This document shows, piece by piece, positions 5,125 to 64,000 of a DNA stretch of 64,000 nt. The translations under genes and the position numbers were made by a program. Positions within the stretch are counted from its first letter, which is position 1. The number at the start of each line of letters is the position of its first letter. Source of the DNA: a virus; IMG/VR virus record IMGVR_UViG_3300009593_000014, positions 1 through 64,000 of that record, one strand, 5' to 3'. The notes under the pieces are model-generated. The model was not told where the DNA came from. It did not search any database and saw only the letters and a program-made list of their open reading frames with translations.

Positions 5125-5633
5125 GAGAACCTTATCAAATCTGTTAGTTCTATAGGAGAGATAATCTTAACCTCTACGCCCCCCTCTTTAAGCAAGGAGA
5201 GTGCATCATCATGGCAATATTTAGTCATAGCGTATACCTCTTTTACACCTGCATTTATTAATGTTCTGGAGCAGAATACACAAGGAGTTGTTGTAAGGTA
5301 CATCCTGCACCCCTCAGTAGCCACACCATTTCTTGCTGCATGCAGTATAGCATTCAATTCAGCATGTACTGCGTTGCATCTTTCAAAACCTTTTCCTGAT
5401 TGCCTCGTTAGGCAAGACTCTCCACAATGGGAGGTCCCCCTTGGCGATCCGTTGTACCCAGTAGCTAAAACGTGATTTGAAACTGGGTCAACTATCACAC
5501 ACCCCACTGAACGAGATGGGCATGTTGCTCTCGTAGCCACAAGAGTGGCCATACGGAAGTAATATGTATCCCAATCTGGACGGCTATTTACCAGATCGAA
5601 ACTATTAGTATTTAAATCATCACTCATTTTCAC
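5121..5633 (-). CDS. dCMP (deoxycytidylate) deaminase
   Basis: RPDWDTY, ATGYNG, Zn motifs HAELNA and PCVFC. Confidence 0.92.
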   Translation of the reverse strand: MKMSDDLNTNSFDLVNSRPDWDTYYFRMATLVATRATCPSRSVGCVIVDPVSNHVLATGYNGSPRGTSHCGESCLTRQSGKGFERCNAVHAELNAILHAARNGVATEGCRMYLTTTPCVFCSRTLINAGVKEVYAMTKYCHDDALSLLKEGGVEVKIISPIELTDLIRFS

Positions 5634-6210
5634 ACCTTTCTTTTAAGATATTATCTAACTCATGAAAGCTATAAGACCTTCCAGCAGAACCATCAAGCCA
5701 CCAAGGAGGGTCTATTAAAAACCCCTCATTGTGAGGACGATTTATGCAGTAAGCATACATACCTTTGTTGTTTATTTTATTAACTTCTATAGGATTATCT
5801 TCGATCATAAATACAGGATTTCCGTTGTTTGATTCTTCCTGTATTTTTTCCATGATCTCACCCTTTTTACCAGACTTAGCGAAGAAAATTGAGTTATAAG
5901 GTATATCCCAATCATCAAGCCAAATTTCTGTTATTTCTTCCCACATAGCATTACGAGCAGTAATGAATGATATATCAATTCCACTCATAAACCATTTATT
6001 TATATGATACCAAGCATCTTCGTATGGCTTAATATTCCTCCAAAACACTTCGCTCTTTAGAGAGTTACTTACCCACTCAATGTCATGCACTTTGTCAGGA
6101 TCAAACGACTCTGAGAAGCTGTACTTTTCGTAGCCGCCACTACTTGCAACACAATCTAATTCAAGAACTGTATTGGCTATGACTCCATCTATATCGATAC
6201 AAAGATGCAT
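5620..6210 (-). CDS. HAD-family 5'(3')-deoxyribonucleotidase-like protein
   Basis: IDIDGVIA (DxDG), FITAR, IEDNP. Start moved to ATG 6210, which follows a GAAAGG SD. Confidence 0.85.
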   Translation of the reverse strand: MHLCIDIDGVIANTVLELDCVASSGGYEKYSFSESFDPDKVHDIEWVSNSLKSEVFWRNIKPYEDAWYHINKWFMSGIDISFITARNAMWEEITEIWLDDWDIPYNSIFFAKSGKKGEIMEKIQEESNNGNPVFMIEDNPIEVNKINNKGMYAYCINRPHNEGFLIDPPWWLDGSAGRSYSFHELDNILKERCENE

Positions 6211-6228
6211 AAAATGCCTTTCTGAATG

Positions 6229-6260
6229 TGGCAGGAGGGGTAGGGAACGCCCTCCTGCCA
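6229..6260 (-). promoter_or_regulatory. GC-rich stem-loop between the SSB and nucleotidase genes
   Basis: Perfect 11-bp inverted repeat TGGCAGGAGGG / CCCTCCTGCCA with a 10-nt loop; no U-tract. Confidence 0.6.
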
Positions 6261-6266
6261 ATCATT

Positions 6267-6920
6267 CTACCAAGTTGAACCTGAACTGGAAACCTCTCCA
6301 GTCGTATAATATGATTCTTGTTGTTCGTAAGGAATGACTTTATAAATGCCATCCAAATCAACCATTGGTATTTCTTTTTGCTCATCTGTTTCCTCAGAGT
6401 TTTCAAGAGGTATGAGGTTGTACTGCGTATCATGTGCGGCACTCCCCTGTCTGCTGTACTTGTAGCAACGATCAGTAATCGTTCCGTAAGTTTCTGCATA
6501 CTCAATAATGGTATTGCCAATATGACGAGAATTGAATGTTGTTTCAATTATCCTTGGCTCCCATTTACCCGGTTCAATCTCTGCCAAAACATTGATCAAT
6601 AGATGTGGTCTCGGAGTCCACTTTCTATCTTTAATGATTTGCTCAGAAGCCCAGCAACGGTACCCAGTTGATTCATTATCAGCAGTACTCATTGCTTTAT
6701 ATTTCCAATTGACTGGCGAAGTAACAACCTGAACAACTGAGGCTGCGCCTCGTGAGTCATCGTGTCCTGCACCATCTTCAGTTAGTTCCTGACGGAACCT
6801 GATCTTAAAAGAGTCCCCATCCCGAAGGAATAAGAATCTTTTTCCACCACCACCAGATGACTTCGTACTGGAGTCTCCTAGTGTTTTTTTCATATCTGCT
6901 ATTGTATTAAAGCTTTTCAT
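6267..6920 (-). CDS. single-stranded DNA-binding protein (gp32-like phage SSB)
   Basis: SGGGG..FLFLRDGDSFKIRF start and YKYSRQG....TQYNLIP motif; located between primase and DnaE. Confidence 0.7.
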   Translation of the reverse strand: MKSFNTIADMKKTLGDSSTKSSGGGGKRFLFLRDGDSFKIRFRQELTEDGAGHDDSRGAASVVQVVTSPVNWKYKAMSTADNESTGYRCWASEQIIKDRKWTPRPHLLINVLAEIEPGKWEPRIIETTFNSRHIGNTIIEYAETYGTITDRCYKYSRQGSAAHDTQYNLIPLENSEETDEQKEIPMVDLDGIYKVIPYEQQESYYTTGEVSSSGSTW

Positions 6921-7872
6921 ATAATTCTCCTATAATCTCGTATTCATTAAATACATTTATTTTATTATTTATGGTTTGTTTTATTTGATCTGAATTCAGA
7001 TCTCCCGCATCCTTGAAATCTGGATCGACTACGCCGACATGGATTTCCATTCCACGGTTAGATGATATTATATCATCTGCCATTGCATAACCTGCACTAT
7101 CATTGTCAGGAATTATAATAATACTATCAAAATTCTTAGATAGCAACATCATTTGATCTTCCGTCACAACAGCACCAAGTGTAGCAACAACGTTTGGAAA
7201 ACCTGCTTGATGTATTTTAATAGCATCAAGACTGCCCTCCACTACTATAACCTCACTATGCGACTTTGCATTATTGAGGTTGAACAATACACGACTCTTG
7301 GTGAATCCTGTACTGTATAAATATCTTGGGACCTGACTCTCGTCAGTAGCCCTACCAATTATACCACAGAAGCTATAAAACTGATCCCTGACAGGGATAG
7401 TTATTCTCTCTTTGTTTCTAGAGTATCCTACCTCAAAGTATCTTAAAGTATCTAGTTCAAACCCGCGATCAATTAAAGGCTTAAGGTAATTCACATCATC
7501 AGAATCATAATCAATCAAACAAGCATCTAAAACATCGTCTGAGATTTCTGTATCCTTTTTTTCACTATCTTCTAATATAGCTTTTAAGAACTCATCACTA
7601 ATCTCGGTTTTAGAAAATCTAGTTTCTTCATTTAGAAGCATCTTTCTAAGGCTGCGGATGCTGCCTTGCTTATCACAATCAGGATTAAAGCAATGCCATA
7701 ACCCATTTTCTTTATTTATAGAAAAAGATGGAGTGTTTTTATTGTCATGAAAAGGACAGTAAGCTGTGAACTCAGTCCCCACCTCGTTTATTATCGAAAC
7801 AGAGGCTCTATGTAATGTGTCTCTTATTACCGACTCAAGCGATTGCGTGTATGGTGAACTCAAATGTCTCAT
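6907..7872 (-). CDS. dnaG: DNA primase (CHC2 zinc finger + TOPRIM)
   Basis: CPFHDNKNTPSF...WHCF zinc finger; VVEGSLD and PDNDSAG TOPRIM motifs; KDAGD. Confidence 0.92.
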   Translation of the reverse strand: MRHLSSPYTQSLESVIRDTLHRASVSIINEVGTEFTAYCPFHDNKNTPSFSINKENGLWHCFNPDCDKQGSIRSLRKMLLNEETRFSKTEISDEFLKAILEDSEKKDTEISDDVLDACLIDYDSDDVNYLKPLIDRGFELDTLRYFEVGYSRNKERITIPVRDQFYSFCGIIGRATDESQVPRYLYSTGFTKSRVLFNLNNAKSHSEVIVVEGSLDAIKIHQAGFPNVVATLGAVVTEDQMMLLSKNFDSIIIIPDNDSAGYAMADDIISSNRGMEIHVGVVDPDFKDAGDLNSDQIKQTINNKINVFNEYEIIGELYEKL

Positions 7873-8029: not shown

Positions 8030-9239
8030 CCCACTCCTCCTTCCATTCTCCTGTATCCAAATTCCAATTCAAAAAGAATCCAAAGTGAGTACATCTACGA
8101 ACCTTACGACTAACCACTTGAAAAATGCTGGAGTCCATCTCACGATGTAGAGCCAACACTAAGTCAGCATCATAAGCTAACTGCTTGCTCCAAGCGACTT
8201 CTTCTAACTCTGGTGGTCTCTCTGAATGTCCATCATTCATCGTTACAGCCGCAACATCAATAATAGGTACATTGTTCTTTACAGCCATTCTCTTAAACGC
8301 TTTGGAAAGGTTTTTAGCCTTCTCAGTCTCAGACTTTGCACCACTAGCATCATCAAATAAACCATGATAGTCAAGAATGACCATATCTGGTTTGTATTGA
8401 TCTATCTTGGCTTGAACAAGGTTCTGATCCGCAACATCTAATCCATCAGAAGTGATGAGATAAAATGGCTGCATATCATTAAACTGACTCTCGCCCCATT
8501 CCTGATAAGAGTCTACAATCTCTGAGTTAGGTCTAACCAGATCGGAGTGGGTAAAGTACCCCCTACCATTATTAAGTAGGGTATCAATCCTTTGAGCTTC
8601 TTGTTGTTTGCTCATCTCCAATGAGATAATCATAGGTCTATAACCAGCCAGCCATGCATTAACAGCAAACAGTCTAGCGATAAAGGACTTACCTACCCCT
8701 GTCCAACCAAGAAGAACAATAAAGTCTCCGGGTTGCCATCCACCAAACTCTGCATCTATAACAGATATCCCTGTAGGGATACCTATGGTTCCTCCATCAT
8801 CACTCTCTGCACGCTTCTTTAACTCGTCTAGGCGCTCTCTCCACTCTCCAGATATATCAGTATCCTTAAGGTTGGTTGCATCCTTTACTAGCTGATTAGC
8901 GTTAGAGACAAGATAGTTAAGTGCAGTCTTTGGACCGCTGTTCTTCATCATCTCATGAGTATTCAACATCAACTCCCTAGTTAGGGTTGACATAGACTCT
9001 TTTCTTGCTTCATCAATATAGTATGACAAAGGCTCTGTAGTAGACAAATACTCAAAGTCAGGAAAGTGTGATTTAATCTCTGCCTTGGCAGGTATCTTTC
9101 CATGATCATTATAGTGTTTGGTTATAAAAGCCCATATGTCTTTATAATTTATAAATACTGAACCTACGTTTTCACTTTGGCATTCAATATAGTCACCGGA
9201 TTCCAACACGGCATTTAAAAGCTTTACTTCGTAATTCAC
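8022..9239 (-). CDS. dnaB: DnaB-like replicative helicase
   Basis: GIPTG, Walker A GWTGVGKS, ISLEM, VILDY, LAYDADLVL. Confidence 0.93.
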   Translation of the reverse strand: MNYEVKLLNAVLESGDYIECQSENVGSVFINYKDIWAFITKHYNDHGKIPAKAEIKSHFPDFEYLSTTEPLSYYIDEARKESMSTLTRELMLNTHEMMKNSGPKTALNYLVSNANQLVKDATNLKDTDISGEWRERLDELKKRAESDDGGTIGIPTGISVIDAEFGGWQPGDFIVLLGWTGVGKSFIARLFAVNAWLAGYRPMIISLEMSKQQEAQRIDTLLNNGRGYFTHSDLVRPNSEIVDSYQEWGESQFNDMQPFYLITSDGLDVADQNLVQAKIDQYKPDMVILDYHGLFDDASGAKSETEKAKNLSKAFKRMAVKNNVPIIDVAAVTMNDGHSERPPELEEVAWSKQLAYDADLVLALHREMDSSIFQVVSRKVRRCTHFGFFLNWNLDTGEWKEEWGV

Positions 9240-9550
9240 TTTCTACGATCCATTCTCTCTTTAGTTTTCTCAACAATGCTTAAAAACTTTTCCTTCGATT
9301 CCCTTTCGGAAACCGTCTTACTAATCATAGTAGGCACTTCCATGGCAAAATTAAAAACCATAATAGGTCCAGTAGTTTTACTTACATACTGACCAGCCAT
9401 AACTATGAGATCTTCATATTCGTAGGTTTCAACCAGACTGTCAGCGACAGGCTCTTCTCTACCAATATCTGGTAAAAAGAACTTACTGTCCTTGCTCGAC
9501 AATTCTCTCAATAAGAGAATCAGGTCCGATCCAACCTTTTTCTGAGGCAT
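9236..9550 (-). CDS. hypothetical protein
   Basis: Operon-coupled ORF; GGAGGG SD before ATG 9550. Confidence 0.7.
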   Translation of the reverse strand: MPQKKVGSDLILLLRELSSKDSKFFLPDIGREEPVADSLVETYEYEDLIVMAGQYVSKTTGPIMVFNFAMEVPTMISKTVSERESKEKFLSIVEKTKERMDRRK

Positions 9551-9779
9551 TTTCAACCCTCCTATGCAATAAAATTAGTCTATCGAATTTAGACATGCCA
9601 GCAGTTACACCGGCAAAATAAGGATCTTCTAGCGCTGTAACGATACATGGTATCTTAACATCACACTTAGTACACTTTTCTTTAGCGTACTCAATCTGTT
9701 CCCAGTCTGAACTAGTCCAATAAAGACTATGTTCATCATTCCTGCAAACAGCATCCTTAATCCATCCGTCAATAGGCAT
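9483..9779 (-). CDS. whiB: WhiB-family Fe-S transcription regulator
   Basis: W...AVC...AKEKCTKCDVKIPC with four Cys, then GVTAG (variant of GVWGG) and S..DR. Confidence 0.8.
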   Translation of the reverse strand: MPIDGWIKDAVCRNDEHSLYWTSSDWEQIEYAKEKCTKCDVKIPCIVTALEDPYFAGVTAGMSKFDRLILLHRRVENASEKGWIGPDSLIERIVEQGQ

Positions 9780-10872: not shown

Positions 10873-12045
10873 TCAGTCAGTGTCAAGCCAAACAGTATAT
10901 TCGGCTGTAACCATGCCTTTCTCTGGGTTTACGAACATTAACGGTTGCGAAGGTCTACCAATAGCGCCCAAAGTTTCAACTGCGTATTCATTAGTTGACT
11001 CTGTGCTACCAGAGACTCTGCAAGTAACCGTATTGAATGTCATGCGAGTTGGCTGATGCCAATGCCCGATGAACACATCGTCGAAGTGTTGATTTATAGC
11101 ACCAACTCTCCAACCAAAAATCTTTTTCTGAAACTGATAGAATGAGCCAAAAGATCTAAACTGATCTCCGTGGCAAAGCAAGCAGCTATAGTTACCTATT
11201 TCTGGTATAGCATACCAACGACCTTCTCCACGACCATCTGGGATGTCGAAGGTTATTCTATCCTCATCTGAAAATACTAAATCCATGATGCGATAAAGCA
11301 TACGGTCAGCATTGGTTTCAGGATCATGATCCTTCCTTCCGCGACCACCTATGGCACCATGGTTTCCAATCACCGCAGTTACTTTAACACTACGGAAATT
11401 TTCTAACATCTTTCTAAAGAATGCTGTCATAATTCTTGGACCATCAACAGTTACTTGACGATACAATCCTCCATCAACGAGAAAACTTTGTCCGGGGAAT
11501 ATAAGTTCTCCCTCAACAATGTCTCCAAGAATCCACACCTCTAAATCCTTAACAGGATGGTCTGCTCTCTGAATGTCAGTCAAAGCAATAACTTTGTCAG
11601 CATAAAGAGCAACCCTTTCTTCACAGGTTATGGAATTATAACTCGGAGTTACCTTAGCTAACTGCCAATCAGACAGTACAGCAACAGCAACCTCTTCACC
11701 CTTGGTTCTTTTGTCTGCCTTGGGCGCTTTCGTGGGAGGTACAACATAATTTTCTGCTTGATCTGTAACCGCTCGGTATACAGACGAAGCAAGGTCTTCT
11801 TTTTTCGTTTTTAACTTCTCGAACTCTTGTACTAGTTTCGTATAAGCTAATTTTAATTCAACCTCGTTATTAATTTCAACATTACTCATTGGATCGTTTG
11901 GAACTCCAAATTCGTTTTGCTCTCTTCTATAAGAACAAACGATATTGTATTCCTGCTCCTTTCTACATCTAGGGTCAGCATATTTTTGATTGTGAGTGTT
12001 CGGGGTGTACATCACTGAGCACCCTTCACCTTGACATTGTTTCAT
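10873..12045 (-). CDS. calcineurin-like metallophosphoesterase with N-terminal Cys motif and coiled coil
   Basis: LSDWQ, LGDIVEG, IGNHG, CHGD, GHWH motifs. Confidence 0.85.
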   Translation of the reverse strand: MKQCQGEGCSVMYTPNTHNQKYADPRCRKEQEYNIVCSYRREQNEFGVPNDPMSNVEINNEVELKLAYTKLVQEFEKLKTKKEDLASSVYRAVTDQAENYVVPPTKAPKADKRTKGEEVAVAVLSDWQLAKVTPSYNSITCEERVALYADKVIALTDIQRADHPVKDLEVWILGDIVEGELIFPGQSFLVDGGLYRQVTVDGPRIMTAFFRKMLENFRSVKVTAVIGNHGAIGGRGRKDHDPETNADRMLYRIMDLVFSDEDRITFDIPDGRGEGRWYAIPEIGNYSCLLCHGDQFRSFGSFYQFQKKIFGWRVGAINQHFDDVFIGHWHQPTRMTFNTVTCRVSGSTESTNEYAVETLGAIGRPSQPLMFVNPEKGMVTAEYTVWLDTD

Positions 12046-48883: not shown

Positions 48884-50941
48884 CTACAGGGCGCAAGTCA
48901 CACAGTCAGGATCATCAATCCTACAAGCTTCAACTTCTTCTACACCATCTTCAGTAGAATCCATGTTGTTTAGCACTTGTTCTGATCTGGAGTTATCTCT
49001 ATATATAGTAACCCCTTTGCACCCAAGATCATAAGCAAGACGATACAAACGATCAGTCTGTTCGACTGTAAAGTCTGAAGGACAGTTTGTTGTCTTGCTG
49101 ATAGCAGAATCAACCCATCGCTGAACTGCTGCTTGAACAGCGACATGTTCCTCTGGCTTGAGGTCCATCGCTGTGACGCAGTAGTCTGGAAGATCATTGA
49201 TGTCCAGACCCATATCGTCAATGACTGGTACGGTTTCAATTTCTGTACCTAGTCTAGAAGTTCTGGTGTACTGCCAGTTAAAGTAAGGCTCAACACCAGT
49301 TGAAGTTCCTTTCATTGTCCCAGTAGTTCCTGTGGGAGCAACGGTTAGTAAGCATACGTTTCTTATTCCATGTTCTAGCACTGCATCTCGTACATGCTCG
49401 GGCATTCCCTTCATGTATCCTGATTTTAGATATTGTTTTCTATCAAGAGCGGGGAATGATCCTTTTACTTTTGCAAGTTCTACAGATGCCATGTATGAGG
49501 ACTCCGATATTGTTTTGAAAAGCTCATCTACAAAGACAAGACCATCAGCAGACCCATACCGTAATTTCATTCTGACCAATAGTTCTCCAAGCCCCATGAC
49601 TCCGAGCCCAATTCGACGGTTGCCTTCATGGTTTTCCTTGATTGATTCAAAGTGGTATTCATTAATGCTAACCACGTTGTCAAGCATACGCACTGCTGAC
49701 TCAATTACTGTATTGAGCTTTTTCCATTCAAACTCAGGAACACCAGACGAGTCATCTACGAATGTAGACAAGTCAAGAGCACCCAGCGTGCAAACACCAT
49801 AAGCCTCAAGAGGCTGTTCTCCACAAGGATTTGTTGCCACCAAAGGAGCGAAGTACCAAGAGTTACTCATCTTGTTTGATCTTTCTAAAAAGTGAAGACC
49901 CGGTTCGGCAGAAGCCCATGCGGAAGACACTATTGAATCCCATATTTCTTTGGCTTGCACTGTTTTATAAACAATCACATTTTTTCCAAGAATATCTCTC
50001 CAGTAGGAAATGTTCCCATCCCAAAGGTCATTGAATTCAGGATCTTTTGTATCTGGAAAGACGAGATCCCATGATTCATTGTTTTTGAGAGCTTCCATGA
50101 ATCCGTCTGAGATACAAACGGACATATTAGCATTCTCAAACTCTCCTGCGGAGTGTTTTGCTGATATGAACTCTTCGACATCAGGATGCCAATCGTCAAT
50201 CATCAGCATTGTTGCGCCGCGCCGTGAACCCCCTTGTTCAATAAGCCCTGTAGAAAGGTTGAACATCTTTCCCCAAGACACAGCGCCACTAGAGATACCG
50301 TTAACCCCGATAACAGGAGCGTAGCGAGGGCGTAAAGAAGAAAGGTTAACACCAACCCCTCCACCTCTTGAATGCGTTTCCGCCATTTCTTTGACACGAT
50401 CAAAAATCCCTCCTCTAGAATCCTCTGGACATGGTAGCACAAAACAGTTTTGAAGTGTTAGTCCTTTTACACCAGCGCCAGCAAGAATACGTCCACCGGG
50501 AATAAAGTGATCAAAAAGAATATCTTTGAAGCCCTGCTCAACCGCCGGTGCGATATCTTCTGACTCACATTGAGATAGAGCCTTGGCAACTCTTGCTTTA
50601 ACTTGATCAACAGTTGTCTCTAATGGTTTAGATATCAAATCAAAATCAACTTGGTGAGTATCTCCTTGATAGGTCTTTACAGTCGCAGTGCGATTGGTTT
50701 GAGAAACCTCTTGCACTATGGATAGTTCCTTAACAGGCCATTTGGGATCTAAAACTACGATAGCTAAAACAAGATCGCCTACAGACAAGTCTCCTTTTTC
50801 TGCCTTCAGCGTGTATCTATCTAAAAATATTTTATATCCTTGATACCCGCTCTTTCTAAAAAACGATGGGATTTTTATCTCCGCATCGTCTTGTAATTCG
50901 GTCTCATTAGAGACAGTTGTTGTATAGCCTGTTATAGTCAT
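48884..50941 (-). CDS. nrdJ: class II (adenosylcobalamin-dependent) ribonucleotide reductase
   Basis: PGGRIL, NCFV, GGGVG, TNPCGEQPL, VAPTGT, ISKTTN, C-terminal CxxC; no beta-subunit gene nearby. Confidence 0.9.
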   Translation of the reverse strand: MTITGYTTTVSNETELQDDAEIKIPSFFRKSGYQGYKIFLDRYTLKAEKGDLSVGDLVLAIVVLDPKWPVKELSIVQEVSQTNRTATVKTYQGDTHQVDFDLISKPLETTVDQVKARVAKALSQCESEDIAPAVEQGFKDILFDHFIPGGRILAGAGVKGLTLQNCFVLPCPEDSRGGIFDRVKEMAETHSRGGGVGVNLSSLRPRYAPVIGVNGISSGAVSWGKMFNLSTGLIEQGGSRRGATMLMIDDWHPDVEEFISAKHSAGEFENANMSVCISDGFMEALKNNESWDLVFPDTKDPEFNDLWDGNISYWRDILGKNVIVYKTVQAKEIWDSIVSSAWASAEPGLHFLERSNKMSNSWYFAPLVATNPCGEQPLEAYGVCTLGALDLSTFVDDSSGVPEFEWKKLNTVIESAVRMLDNVVSINEYHFESIKENHEGNRRIGLGVMGLGELLVRMKLRYGSADGLVFVDELFKTISESSYMASVELAKVKGSFPALDRKQYLKSGYMKGMPEHVRDAVLEHGIRNVCLLTVAPTGTTGTMKGTSTGVEPYFNWQYTRTSRLGTEIETVPVIDDMGLDINDLPDYCVTAMDLKPEEHVAVQAAVQRWVDSAISKTTNCPSDFTVEQTDRLYRLAYDLGCKGVTIYRDNSRSEQVLNNMDSTEDGVEEVEACRIDDPDCVTCAL

Positions 50942-60668: not shown

Positions 60669-61468
60669 TGAGAACATTTAGCTTCGGTGGCGGTGTCCAA
60701 TCAACTGCTGTATTGGCATTACAAGCTTTAGGCGAACTACCTAAACCATACGATGTGTATTTGTTCTCCAACGTAGGCAACGATAGTGAAGATCCTGAAA
60801 CTATATCTTACTTTCACAACCACCACCTGCCTTTTGCTGAGAAGCATGGGATACGCATAATTGAATTAATCAAGGAAAGCCGGGGCAGAGAGAATGAGAC
60901 ACTATGGGAGCAACTTCACCGAATGGAAGTTAGGTCTATCCAGATACCTGCATACAGGGTAGGAAAAGGACCCGGGGGTAGAAAATGCACCAGAGATTAC
61001 AAGATTCGTGTAGTTAGGAAATGGCAAAGACAAAACGGATCATCTAAAGATAACCCTGTAGTGATGGGGTTAGGAATTAGTGTAGATGAGATCCAAAGAG
61101 CACGAACCAGTTCCCGACATGAGGACCAGATACTAGAATATCCCTTAATTGACCTAGGAATGGACCGTGACGACTGCTTTGAAGTCATAAAAAGAGCAGG
61201 ATTACCCACTCCTCCACGTTCAGCGTGCTTCTTTTGCCCCTTTCACAGTAAAAAAGCGTGGATAGATCAAAAAGAAAACCGTCCAGAGCTATTCGCTAAG
61301 TCAGTAGCGCTGGAGAAAGTCCTATTGGAACGGTGTGAAATACATGGAAAAGAACCAGAATACCTTAGCAGATACGGTGTTCCTTTAGATGAAGCCTTCT
61401 CCGAATATGGAAACATCCCCGATGATGACGGTCCCGAAGGATGCGAAGAAGCAAGCTGCTTTACCTAA
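60668..61468 (+). CDS. PAPS-reductase-like / adenine-nucleotide alpha-hydrolase (PP-loop) protein
   Basis: SFGGGVQST PP-loop, CTRDYKI, GISVDE..R, YPLI, SACFFCPF, C-terminal C....C. Confidence 0.82.
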   Translation: MRTFSFGGGVQSTAVLALQALGELPKPYDVYLFSNVGNDSEDPETISYFHNHHLPFAEKHGIRIIELIKESRGRENETLWEQLHRMEVRSIQIPAYRVGKGPGGRKCTRDYKIRVVRKWQRQNGSSKDNPVVMGLGISVDEIQRARTSSRHEDQILEYPLIDLGMDRDDCFEVIKRAGLPTPPRSACFFCPFHSKKAWIDQKENRPELFAKSVALEKVLLERCEIHGKEPEYLSRYGVPLDEAFSEYGNIPDDDGPEGCEEASCFT

Positions 61469-62124
61469 TCGGCGGCGCGGCGGCCCCCCTTTTCTTTTTT
61501 TGAAAAAATTTTTATTTCTAAGTAACAAAACTTATTGCCAATTTTGGGCCGTGACTTAGCATTCCCCCCATTCCCCCATCCCCATTGCCTTAAAAAAGCA
61601 TTAACAACATCTTTTAAACCTTCCAGAAAATCAATAAAAATAATGTAGCGCAGACATTATATAGCACCAAAATATTTCCCCACGACCCCTATCCCACAAT
61701 GCTCTCACAGCCACACACAGCCCCTCTAAGGACATCCTACACACAACAGAGGTAGACACCCTTGAAGCAAGCCAAGCTAAGCAAAATACTCTGAAAAAAT
61801 AAAAAAAATAACACCCCGAAAAAGGAGGCCCCGCCCCCGCCCCATAGAAGCATAATTCCAAAAAAACAAACAAAGTTTTTCCAAAATTTAGTACATATTT
61901 AAGAAGACCTGCATATATAAAAATAAAAAATAGAATTACTGTACAACCAGTACCCATAACCCCACTACACGTCTACCCCCCTCCTCATAAGCTGTGGTTC
62001 GTGGCTCGCTCGCTCGCTTCCTTTAACATCAGGAAGATATAAGTTTGGGCTGGTAAAAAAATTAGTGTGTATTTATAACAGTTATTATGTTTAAAAATAA
62101 ATAAAAGAAATTTGTGTTAAAAGG

Positions 62125-62152
62125 TTGACATAGTTGTTTGATGCTATATAAT
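62125..62152 (+). promoter_or_regulatory. cassette 1 promoter
   Basis: TTGACA-16-TATAAT with AT-rich upstream tract. Confidence 0.75.
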
Positions 62153-62185
62153 GAACTTATCAAACAAAAGGCAGAGGAGCCAACA

Positions 62186-62515
62186 ATGCAAAAAGCAATG
62201 CGAAATATGACATCAGGAAACAACATAGAATGGTTGTCATTAGGCCGTGAATTCAACACGGCACAGTTCACAGGAACTCTTACCCATACTAACTTAATGA
62301 ATGGTCACAGAGACGGAAACATACTAGGTGTAACAACTATAGAAGATAACGTAGCAATCACTAACTACATACAGTTTCCACATACTGAATCAATCAATGA
62401 GTGGATGAACAAAGAGGTTACACTAACTGCCTCAGTCAAGACCAGAAGACTACAACACGCAGAAGAAGAAACCTATCTTCACACTGCTAACGCTTGGTCA
62501 ATACGCTTAGCATAG
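62186..62515 (+). CDS. cassette 1 hypothetical protein (109 aa, possibly OB-fold-like)
   Basis: GAGGAG SD before ATG 62186; beta-rich. Confidence 0.75.
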   Translation: MQKAMRNMTSGNNIEWLSLGREFNTAQFTGTLTHTNLMNGHRDGNILGVTTIEDNVAITNYIQFPHTESINEWMNKEVTLTASVKTRRLQHAEEETYLHTANAWSIRLA

Positions 62516-62530
62516 TTAACCAAAGAATAG

Positions 62531-62559
62531 AGACCGGCCCTTATGGGTCGGTCTTTTTT
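62531..62559 (+). terminator. intrinsic terminator, cassette 1
   Basis: GACCGGCCC-TTAT-GGGTCGGTC followed by T6. Confidence 0.9.
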
Positions 62560-62805
62560 CTTTTGTATAGGGTATTCGATAAGCACTAGATCCAGGAGCT
62601 CCGCCTATCTGCCTGTGGTTCGTGGCTCGCTCGCTCGCTTCCTTTAACGTCAGGAAGATATGAATGGGGCAGTAGCTAGACTTAAGTATGTATTTGTAAC
62701 TAGATATATGGTTAAAAGAAATAGTTAAAGTTTTTAGTTGCAAGGTTGGTATTGACTGTCAAATTTGTAAACTAGATATATCGGCAAGAGTAAAGGATAA
62801 AACAA

Positions 62806-63102
62806 ATGCCACTAATAATAATAAACAAGACAGAAGAAATACCGGAAGAATGGAAGCAGCAAGACGGAAGATACCAAACACCAATGGTAATGGTTGACTT
62901 TGGCAACGTGCACAGTAATGGTGGTTTCGGTACTCACTTAACATTGGCCCCAACAGTAGAGACCAGCGAATGGCGCAACGCTTATGGAATAGAGTTCCAT
63001 CATGATGCAGGCGCTTATCGTCAAGTAACATCTGCACCGTGTAAGTTTATCGGCATAGCACAAAACGACGGTTCCATCTTCTGGACTTATATTCCACAAT
63101 AG
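62806..63102 (+). CDS. cassette 2 hypothetical protein (98 aa)
   Basis: AAAGGA SD; candidate promoter TTGGTA-16-TAAACT at 62746-62773. Confidence 0.75.
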   Translation: MPLIIINKTEEIPEEWKQQDGRYQTPMVMVDFGNVHSNGGFGTHLTLAPTVETSEWRNAYGIEFHHDAGAYRQVTSAPCKFIGIAQNDGSIFWTYIPQ

Positions 63103-63115
63103 GACAAAAGAGAGA

Positions 63116-63144
63116 AGCCGGCCCTTAATAGGGCCGGTTTTTTT
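63116..63144 (+). terminator. intrinsic terminator, cassette 2
   Basis: CCGGCCCT-TAAT-AGGGCCGG followed by T7. Confidence 0.9.
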
Positions 63145-63340
63145 CGTTATATAGGGTGTTCGAGAAGCGTCTATTATTGAAGCTTCCCTGTCTTGCTGTG
63201 GTTCTTGGCTCGCTCGCTCGCTTCCTTTAACGTCAGGGGAATAGTAGTTTGGGCTGGACTAAGATTTAATACATAAATGATTGCAAAACTAGACTTAAGA
63301 CTATAAGATAAAAATATCAACAAAAATAAAGGATAAAGAT

Positions 63341-63517
63341 ATGACAATAACCAATAAACAAGTACAGATATTCAACACGGTGGCTAATCAACCCCGCTGT
63401 TGGCACTGCGAGGAGGATCTCTATTCTGACCATGAGACCGCTCATAGAGAGTTCGTAATAACAATGCATCATGCCTTCCATATCGCGTGCTACTTCGACC
63501 ACACAAACGATCAATAA
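63341..63517 (+). CDS. cassette 3 small Zn-finger-like protein (58 aa, below cutoff)
   Basis: TTGCAA-17-TAAGAT promoter, AAAGGA SD, CWHC...HIAC. Confidence 0.7.
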   Translation: MTITNKQVQIFNTVANQPRCWHCEEDLYSDHETAHREFVITMHHAFHIACYFDHTNDQ

Positions 63518-63672
63518 GGCTGTGTTTCGTGGCTCGCTCGCTCTCTCCCTTTAACGTCAGGGGAATTTAGGCATATAGATACGGTGTTTTTAATAGGTAT
63601 TTATTAAATGCTTGACAAGACTATAACTATTAAATTAATCTGTAATTTATAAGCAACAGATGAGGAGACATC

Positions 63673-63837
63673 ATGGCTAAATATAAAGAAACCAAATGGG
63701 ATATAAAGCCTAGTTACGACTATGAGGGTAAATGGGAAGTGTTCCATATTGGACATAGTAACTACGTTCGTAGCGTACACGACACACACGCTGAAGCATT
63801 AGCAGAAGCGCGGAGACTAGACAGGGAGAATAGATAA
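63673..63837 (+). CDS. cassette 4 small protein (54 aa, DUF2188-like, below cutoff)
   Basis: TTGACA-18-TAATCT promoter, GAGGAG SD, GKWEV...SVHDTHAEALAEARRL. Confidence 0.7.
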   Translation: MAKYKETKWDIKPSYDYEGKWEVFHIGHSNYVRSVHDTHAEALAEARRLDRENR

Positions 63838-64000
63838 TGTTAGATCCGATTTATAGACGGCGTAGGATCGCTGTCAGCGCTTTATTGGCAGTGTTCGTAT
63901 TCTGGTTCTCATATCTAGGCGGGGAACTGCTTAGTAGCCTTTAACCAGCAGGCTGTGTTTCGTGGCCCGCTCACTCTCTCCCTTTAACGTCAGAGAAACT

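Follow-up and report, generated by a model that had tools for sequence, protein, structure and literature searches.

A putative docking box, conserved and always in one orientation, at the head of small-gene units in a PeSL-like virus array

The subject of this analysis is a repeated intergenic element, and the array of small genes in which it occurs, in an uncultured marine phage represented by the virus record IMGVR_UViG_3300009593_000014. The window, by which we mean the whole stretch of DNA that was analysed, consists of bases 1-64000 of this 85,154-bp IMG/VR record, which is linear and ~82% complete according to CheckV; record and window coordinates are equal. A first-pass annotation of the window had described five same-orientation copies of a 42-bp repeat that delimit single-gene cassettes. 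Our repeat search returned a five-member same-strand family with a 49-nucleotide (nt) unit at 61989, 62610, 63193, 63517 and 63950, spaced by 621, 583, 324 and 433 nt; the copies are 84-100% identical to the one taken as reference. A 30-nt degenerate consensus gave five matches in the window, all on the + strand, and none in 100 dinucleotide shuffles, which confirms the copies and their spacings. The earlier description of the (GCTC)n tract also holds, as does that of a drift between copies 1-2 and copies 4-5, the latter with the TTT and CTCTCC variants.

In the full record, the array is longer, and its key unit shorter, than had been proposed. A 19-20-nt core, CTGTNGTTCGT(T)GGCTCGCT, is present in 15 copies from 61992 to 70472, all on the + strand; the - strand has no copy, and the other 76 kb of the 85,154-bp record are free of the core. 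All 15 cores are intergenic, that is, between open reading frames (ORFs), and span 61992-70490 with start-to-start spacings of 94 to 924 nt. The array is ~8.5 kb long, and the five copies in the window are only its start; the ten further cores start at 64047, 64747, 65569, 66163, 66836, 67564, 68283, 68937, 69548 and 70472. The sequence 3' of the core defines sub-families. Copies 1-5 have a 47-nt class A form, whose extension consists of GCTC repeats and a small hairpin (CTTCCT/AGGAAG), and copies 6-10 and 12 have AAACCGC or GACCGC after the core (class B), followed by ~100 nt of further similarity. Copies 11 and 14 have a common third continuation, and copies 13 and 15 are different again; the class C extension after the core is TCCTTATAAC.... 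The 42-47-nt form is one sub-family, and it is the 5' core of 19-20 nt that is conserved across the lineage. As a side observation, CCAGGACTAGAA-type words occur eight times on the + strand and never on the - strand, directly 5' of the core and ~80 nt after it in class-B headers.

The conservation of the core was examined within this array and in its relatives, which are 35 marine metagenome loci found through homologues of the 'WHPE' protein, a ~109-aa product of the later units. First, column information content was calculated from 73 unique instances of this phage and the relatives, anchored at the core. The information is ~0-0.3 bit upstream, jumps to at least 1.2 bits exactly at the base preceding CTGT, stays high across the core and ~12 nt beyond, and then drops. 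A weaker second conserved block lies ~50-66 nt past the core end; a motif sampler result for this block was dominated by one sub-family and was not used. Second, the mean pairwise identity of the 15 copies is 87% in the core (minimum 73%) vs 44-52% in the 40-nt flanks, the latter being the level that unrelated sequence gives with the same aligner. Third, the paralogue cassettes have cores that are 90-100% identical (90-95% in the three that are most alike, whose headers are otherwise 61-83% identical), far above the third positions of same-residue codons (55-61%). That core identity exceeds both flanks and synonymous sites argues for constraint on the core. The core as a conserved peptide was excluded by the 1-nt length difference (19 vs 20 nt) within it. 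A passive origin of the core, as a functionless remnant of tandem duplication, is also barely credible: many cargo genes are paralogous, so units were indeed duplicated, but core identity is still 87-100% while flanks and synonymous sites have nearly saturated, and the core precedes unrelated genes and is kept in distant relatives. A very recent origin of all copies is at odds with their diverged flanks.

In the usual unit, a stop codon and a strong intrinsic-terminator-like hairpin are followed by a 30-65-nt spacer, a ~90-nt header, an A+T-rich stretch with a host-type promoter and Shine-Dalgarno (SD) sequence, and one small gene. The core is the 5' end of the header, after the terminator of the preceding gene and before the promoter. 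It lies 3-175 nt past the previous stop codon and ~145-225 nt before the next start codon, and is therefore assigned to the downstream unit. The best sigma70-like promoter is 56-115 nt downstream of the core. This arrangement bears out the view that the units are self-contained and that the repeat is neither promoter nor terminator. The features at the start of the array are listed in Table 1.

Table 1. Features at the start of the array, in window coordinates
Feature	Position	Strand	Remarks
Non-coding lead-in to the array	61480-61991		Rich in C-runs; three + strand copies of (A/T)T(N)YCCCCA
Header copy 1, class A	61992-62038	+	19-nt core CTGTGGTTCGTGGCTCGCT and class A extension; first unit of the array, no gene upstream
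Consensus sigma70-type promoter of cassette 1, TTGACA-16-TATAAT (12 of 12)	62125-62152	+	Starts 114 nt past the end of core 1
Cargo gene 1, 109 aa	62186-62515	+	No Pfam or PHROG match
Intrinsic-terminator-like hairpin and T-run after gene 1	62529-62556	+	Core 2 follows 57 nt after its end
Header copy 2, class A	62613-62659	+	
Cargo gene 2, 98 aa	62806-63102	+	No family match
GC-rich hairpin CCGGCCC..GGGCCGG, then + strand T-run, after gene 2	63118-63137		Found by the scan on the - strand only; + strand by eye
Header copy 3, class A	63196-63242	+	Core position 10 is T instead of G
Cargo gene 3, 58 aa	63341-63517	+	Cassette missing from close relative L014
Header copy 4, class A variant CTCTCC	63520-63566	+	3 nt past the stop codon of the 58-aa gene, no terminator between
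Cargo genes 4 (54 aa) and 5 (35 aa)	63673-63944	+	Gene 4: DUF2188, E 1.2e-4; gene 5: overlapping ATGA start
Header copy 5, class A variant	63953-63999	+	First of a core pair 94 nt apart, gene-free between

Terminator-like sites are enriched in 61001-73000 (28 vs 9.3 +/- 3.1 in shuffles), with the exception that copies 4 and 5 directly follow stop codons with no hairpin between. Promoter-like sites by strict criteria are not enriched in the array (21 vs 31.8 +/- 5.9 in shuffles). The claim that each cassette carries its own sigma70 promoter holds in part: by strict criteria cassette 1 alone, among the four cassettes of the window, has a consensus promoter, and cassettes 2-4 have weaker candidates by a laxer scoring. 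A second excellent promoter, TTGACT-18-CATAAT with a preceding TG, lies at 64144-64173. When the lax sigma70 weights, which are rough, self-made values, were applied to the 73 instances of this phage and its relatives, 49 had a sigma70-like candidate scoring at least 8, and in 26 of these 49 the -35 box starts 60-89 nt past the core end. Relatives of higher G+C content have clear TTGACA-17-NNTAAT promoters right behind the header.

Several further features of the non-coding sequence were observed. The word TTTATGGGG(T) follows the terminator T-run in four units, at record positions 65505, 66134, 68860 and 69509. The word (A/T)T(N)YCCCCA is found on the + strand at 61562, 61571 and 61674 in the window and at 70633, 70757, 70866, 71055 and 71338 in the record, so that eight of the record's 20 forward copies sit in the two non-coding stretches bordering the array; a similar C-run closes the header in relatives. 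The G+C content is 43% in the array (61990-70500) vs 28-30% in the neighbouring - strand gene block (70500-85154), and the array sequences of the relatives look richer in G+C than those of this phage by eye.

The cargo of cassettes 1-4 is mutually unrelated, as had been noted, since no blastp pair has E <1, and the 54-aa gene with its DUF2188 match is the only cargo gene with a family match. Past 64 kb (record 64180-70297) there are eight WHPE paralogues, one per unit, and one 169-aa gene. The WHPE family has the invariant columns G-Q-A, N..Q..A..R.H and W.PE..PQ, and a profile search found 127 metagenome homologues at E <= 0.001. Its AlphaFold model is confident (pLDDT 90.6), but Foldseek gave no PDB match at E <=0.001, the best being 0.13 among several winged-helix-type proteins, and the ESM Atlas gave no usable match. 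The best VIA-align match was Stn1 (Z 6.0, root-mean-square deviation 5.1 A over 70 residues), within the tool's stated noise range. One paralogue matches Pfam HTH_62 at a sub-threshold E of 0.003. With no clear fold match and a sub-threshold HTH_62 match, we therefore make no DNA-binding claim for WHPE. The paralogue of unit 11 (record 67564-68283) has a good SD sequence, AAGGAGG, and no ATG, GTG or TTG at the expected start; its frame opens GTT ATT GAC, which is either a rare start codon or decay.

Searches of deposited sequences returned little outside the marine loci. The region 61400-64000 had no DNA similarity to any of 50,697 deposited phage records. An exact core scan of IMG/VR gave two single matches (L007 and L008) with no further copies, which were taken as chance, and no IMG/VR relatives were found via the WHPE protein, its PAPS-reductase-like neighbour or the WHPE alignment. 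An apparent paired-core match in IMG/VR (L045:279-480) proved to be a false positive, an unrelated 18-nt tandem repeat inside a 919-aa ORF. The GTDB representative genomes contained no WHPE relative and no paired-core pattern, although the absence of prophage or host sites is not proven by this search.

In the marine loci, repeated core variants were found, for example CTGTGGTGCGCTTTCTGGCT, CTGTGGTGCGATGGCTGGCT, CCGTCGTGCGCTGGCTGGCT and CTGTCGGGCGCTGCTGGCT. A weight matrix in two parts was applied to 36 sources; its training set was these same instances, so that detection is partly circular; 21 of these sources have at least two copies, 3 have one and 12 have none. In all 21 multi-copy sources the copies are on one strand, and real matches score at least 18.5 bits vs a shuffled maximum of 5.9 bits. 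The core word is common to phages whose WHPE proteins are only ~40% identical, and the rest of the header diverges. In addition, paired cores stand before the first WHPE gene exactly 94 nt apart, start to start, in 12 of 12 pair-holding loci. These pairs belong to three lineages, and their 74-nt spacers are only 52-68% identical, so the fixed spacing suggests a length constraint on a putative nucleoprotein unit. The distant relative L015 has two pairs, each with a spacing of 100 nt.

The L015 locus also separates the direction of the core from that of the genes. Its 14 core-like copies, which come in three spellings, all lie on the + strand, with no inverted one found, and its WHPE genes at 5414-5854, 6198-6521, 6930-7256 and 9159-9554 are all on the - strand, between headers. 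Each inverted WHPE gene in L015:5100-9600 was seen to have its own - strand terminator-like hairpin. Localised single-strand interruptions are known in some phages, and the core could likewise be a polar DNA-transaction signal, namely a strand-specific nick, replication, entry or packaging-related site. A ~20-nt asymmetric consensus confined to one strand, with a direction independent of cargo orientation, would suit such a signal, as would the two non-coding stretches with a common C-run word that border the array. We consider it distinctly improbable, since the sites are limited to 8.5 kb and lie regularly at unit boundaries just upstream of promoters, which is not required of such signals.

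Folding was examined on both strands. Rfam had no match on the core, and four sub-threshold matches were all to terminators. RNAalifold on 17 class-I headers gave -3.87 kcal/mol with a covariation term of 0, and on the complementary strand -2.75 kcal/mol with a covariation term of -0.06. As single-stranded DNA (ssDNA), ten headers had fold z-scores of +0.55, +0.68, +1.64, +1.98, +0.99, +2.23, -0.86, +1.56, -4.24 and 0.00, so that copy 13 alone (z -4.24) folds above shuffles. The imperfect inverted ends attributed to the repeat comprise only 3+3 bp and are unused in the minimum-energy DNA fold of three of the four copies folded (copies 1-4, z +0.55 to +1.98); they are partly paired in copy 2 only. 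Since there is no fold signal on either strand, duplex DNA is favoured, and the simplest view of the core is that of a sequence word that is read in double-stranded form, or of a linear RNA word. A nut-like arrangement of conserved core and variable hairpin was dropped, because the hairpins are weak and inconsistent.

The second of these options, in which the core (with the class-A extension) is a linear signal in long + strand transcripts, serving as a processing, anti-termination or factor-loading site, would explain the fixed core direction whatever the cargo orientation. It agrees with the strict + strand polarity, with copies 4 and 5, which have no terminator ahead of them and so would be transcribed, and with relatives such as L026 that lack canonical terminators (4 found vs 5.4 expected). 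However, in this phage a strong intrinsic terminator precedes most copies by 30-65 nt and the promoter comes only after them, and together with the lack of an Rfam match and the weak consensus folds this makes an RNA signal improbable.

The fold results also bear on a comparison with integrons, in which attC sites are co-oriented boundary sites between single-gene cassettes and cargo lies in either direction. The co-oriented boundary sites and the freedom of cargo direction are alike. Unlike attC sites, the headers have no hairpin-forming imperfect inverted repeat (nine of ten with z from -0.86 to +2.23), in agreement with the earlier view that attC geometry is lacking; the record has no integrase match (PF00589), and the cassettes here carry their own promoters and terminators.

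We then compared the cassettes between close relatives. L014 and L009 show ~82-90% nucleotide identity to this phage in long shared cassette alignments, compared in 40-nt windows. In L014, the gene in slot 1 is 95-98% identical to gene 2 and has the cassette 1 3' flank behind it, and slot 2 has a header nearer header 2 and a gene 78-95% identical to gene 1, followed by the cassette 2 3' flank. Genes 1 and 2, as judged from these alignments, have traded places in L014, while the non-coding frame around them is stable. L014 lacks cassette 3, the endpoints being inside a shared 47-52 nt. In L014 the 169-aa gene stands behind a different header, which is like header 6 from the core through the -10 box, and the switch to sequence that belongs to the gene itself falls between the -10 box and the SD. 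Both swaps that could be resolved have their junctions outside the core, namely in the stretch from the -10 box to the SD and close to the stop codon. As far as these alignments show, cassette exchange is real, and the repeat as a crossover site, as earlier proposed, is not supported by the two resolvable junctions. Logan contigs of four sequencing runs, in which contigs break at headers, were also compared; run X1 is perhaps the source sample and the others come from independent studies. None of the runs listed with this stretch was an RNA run, and a part that lacks cover in runs X3 and X4 was left out of the comparison. A run X3 contig joins 61980 to 62613, with ten bridging letters equal to 61982-61991, and has lost one 621-nt period. 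This contig is a strain variant and not proof of ongoing excision.

The first-pass annotation had found no recombinase in the window. This holds for the site-specific types: the Phage_integrase profile (PF00589) had no match in the 85,154-bp record, which is ~82% complete, while the control profile was positive in 14 of 14 genomes, and the Resolvase (serine recombinase) profile also had no match in the record. It does not hold for homologous recombination, as the window encodes a UvsX-like recombinase (831-1745), a Holliday-junction resolvase (520-831), an SSB and an exonuclease; the set lies at 520-1745, 6270-6920 and 10876-12045 with PHROG matches of E 2e-15 to 6e-44. An 8-nt recombination-hotspot word gave no signal, with two forward and two reverse copies in 85 kb. 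Sigma70_r2 (PF04542) had no match, and T7-type RNA polymerase (PF00940) had none either, but here the control was also silent, so the blank is uninformative. Host transcription-factor and alternative-sigma layouts (two-half-site and -24/-12-type) were set aside because, by inspection only, they did not suit every copy. Elsewhere in the window, a 685-aa ORF at 48887-50941 (- strand) matches phage ribonucleotide reductases at ~40% identity (E 9e-129), and its assignment as a terminase was dropped for this reason.

Based on these comparisons, it might be asked whether recombination is the primary role of the headers, which would be either portable homology for the phage's homologous recombination or the site of an unrecognised site-specific enzyme, and would let cassettes be deleted, duplicated or swapped between co-infecting relatives in any cargo orientation. 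The one-period cassette loss in an independent sample, the absence of cassette 3 with its endpoints in shared sequence, the varying order and header-cargo pairing between relatives of about 85-90% identity, the co-oriented headers despite four inverted cargo genes in L015 and the encoded recombination proteins all speak for this. So does the precedent of mini-circle deletion reported between tandem PeSLs (PMC4122927). Copies within a sub-family share lineage-specific substitutions, which indicates, at the level of sequence comparison, concerted evolution; this is a further point in favour, and it makes the ordered addition that had been put forward to explain the drift between copies unneeded. 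Against it, both resolvable junctions lie outside the core, and exchange by homology needs no given word, yet a 20-nt word is kept at ~40% WHPE identity. No tyrosine or serine recombinase was found in the 85 kb of this incomplete record, and hairpin geometry is lacking. On balance, we regard a primarily recombinational role as unlikely, though it is the foremost of the rival readings.

PeSLs of T4-type phages are described as composite motifs of stem-loop, sigma70-like promoter, SD and ATG between the small genes of plastic regions, and are implicated in indels and replacements through homologous or site-specific recombination (Arbiol et al. 2010; Comeau et al. 2014, PMC4122927). The analogy with PeSLs, already drawn in the first-pass annotation, is apt in that this is a plastic small-gene region with exchange between close relatives. 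In both cases, the genes are small and mostly unfamiliar, the early region is plastic, indels and replacements between close relatives occur at modules, and the phage encodes a homologous recombination system. Of the composite motif, hairpins are enriched and promoters and SD sequences are present here, but copies 4 and 5 are hairpin-free. In contrast to PeSLs, in which the promoter and stem-loop themselves are the conserved parts, a ~90-nt oriented header (20-nt core and ~70 nt) separates stem-loop and promoter here, and the conserved box is neither of them. This phage also has a DnaE-type polymerase ORF and is not shown to be T4-like; the genes seen that bear on this are only a UvsX-like recombinase, a primase, a DnaB-like helicase and a 1130-aa PHP-domain ORF.

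Two operator systems offer closer parallels to the core itself. In Cluster A mycobacteriophages, the L5 repressor, a two-domain monomer, binds the stoperators, asymmetric 13-bp sites whose direction is tied to transcription (PMC9283540). They share with the core the many asymmetric copies, the location in short intergenic spaces or at promoters, and the consistent direction (15 of 15 on the + strand here), and their recognition by a monomer in which two domains read the DNA shows that sites of this kind can serve as operators. They differ in being 13 bp long and distributed genome-wide in temperate phages, whereas the core is 19-20 nt and confined to 61992-70490; moreover, they follow transcription, whereas the L015 headers are on the + strand with four - strand cargo genes. 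SPBRE is a 15-bp repeated intergenic element in the promoter regions of about ten SPbeta early genes and the operator of the master repressor MrpR; it was spotted in silico long before its binder, which has the fold of a tyrosine recombinase, and the phage is temperate and infects Bacillus (PMC10516654). SPBRE resembles the core as a repeated element in early-gene promoter regions. With respect to MrpR, no PF00589 match was found in the present record, although a diverged fold may escape the profile and 18% of the genome is missing.

Taken together, the array is best read as a PeSL-like cassette array with an added oriented box, putatively for protein docking. We tentatively suggest, as a possible rather than a probable account, that the core serves as an operator-like site at which a protein docks and through which the whole array becomes one regulon, and that exchange at the repeated regulatory shell is a side effect. 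In this proposal, a ~90-nt header would open each expression unit of an 8.5-kb early-gene array, with the repeat as the header's 5' end, and the core would be a double-stranded DNA docking site for a sequence-specific protein, phage- or host-encoded. A 20-bp asymmetric site would fit a monomer with two reading heads. Binding of the protein would unite all units, so that early promoters might be shut off, insulated or boosted together. Since the headers are co-directional along the array and the phage has its own UvsX-type machinery, headers, promoter-SD joints and terminators can serve as portable homology, through which units would be lost, duplicated or exchanged, as is partly shown above. 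The core has a sharp boundary, shows strong constraint and stands upstream of promoters; paired cores keep a fixed spacing, and a folding signal is lacking. All of this is consistent with a docking site and lends this proposal a guarded preference.

Several observations weigh against the proposal. First, all 20-nt copies in L009 and L014 have C where the 20-nt copies of this phage have T, and therefore gene conversion adds to the uniformity of the core, which weakens the argument from selection. Second, many of the marine loci are overlapping assemblies of few lineages, and the 21 multi-copy sources are not independent. Third, the distances between core and promoter (56, 63, 66, 72, 77, 81, 89, 100 and 114 nt, among others) show no 10-11-nt periodicity, and given this lack of helical phasing the core is unlikely to be in direct contact with RNA polymerase; its centre also lies ~110-150 nt ahead of the putative start site, a long distance for an activator or repressor of a simple kind. 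Fourth, copies 5 and 15 have no gene behind them, and downstream of copy 15 there is only non-coding DNA. Fifth, header direction in L015, as its gene layout indicates, is not dictated by cargo transcription, and a polar genome-level role (recombination scaffold, replication, entry or nicking) would fit this locus at least as well. Finally, the docking site and the protein that would bind it are both putative, and WHPE is no more than a tempting candidate for the partner.

A related and more far-reaching idea is that the core is the address label of a cassette platform, in which a fixed one-way scaffold of headers is read by an array-encoded protein, WHPE being the obvious candidate, and cargo may be placed in either orientation. 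We consider this a long shot; if true, the array would be a promoter-carrying, integrase-free functional analogue of the integron, regulating as well as exchanging early or anti-host genes.

In conclusion, comparison with the relatives showed that the repeat is kept at unit boundaries while cassette content and order differ. Compared with the known PeSL-like cassette plan, the array has a conserved oriented box in addition. The genes that change fastest and are least understood in phages, many of which are candidates for anti-defence, are kept in early host-takeover regions, and an oriented word that opens every unit and survives gene replacement is a handle with which to find such regions in metagenomes. 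The core is likewise a handle for fishing out the regulator of the array and for asking whether regulation and gene exchange use one DNA signal. The oriented cassette box may be a general, under-described feature of phage genome architecture, beyond the T4-type phages.

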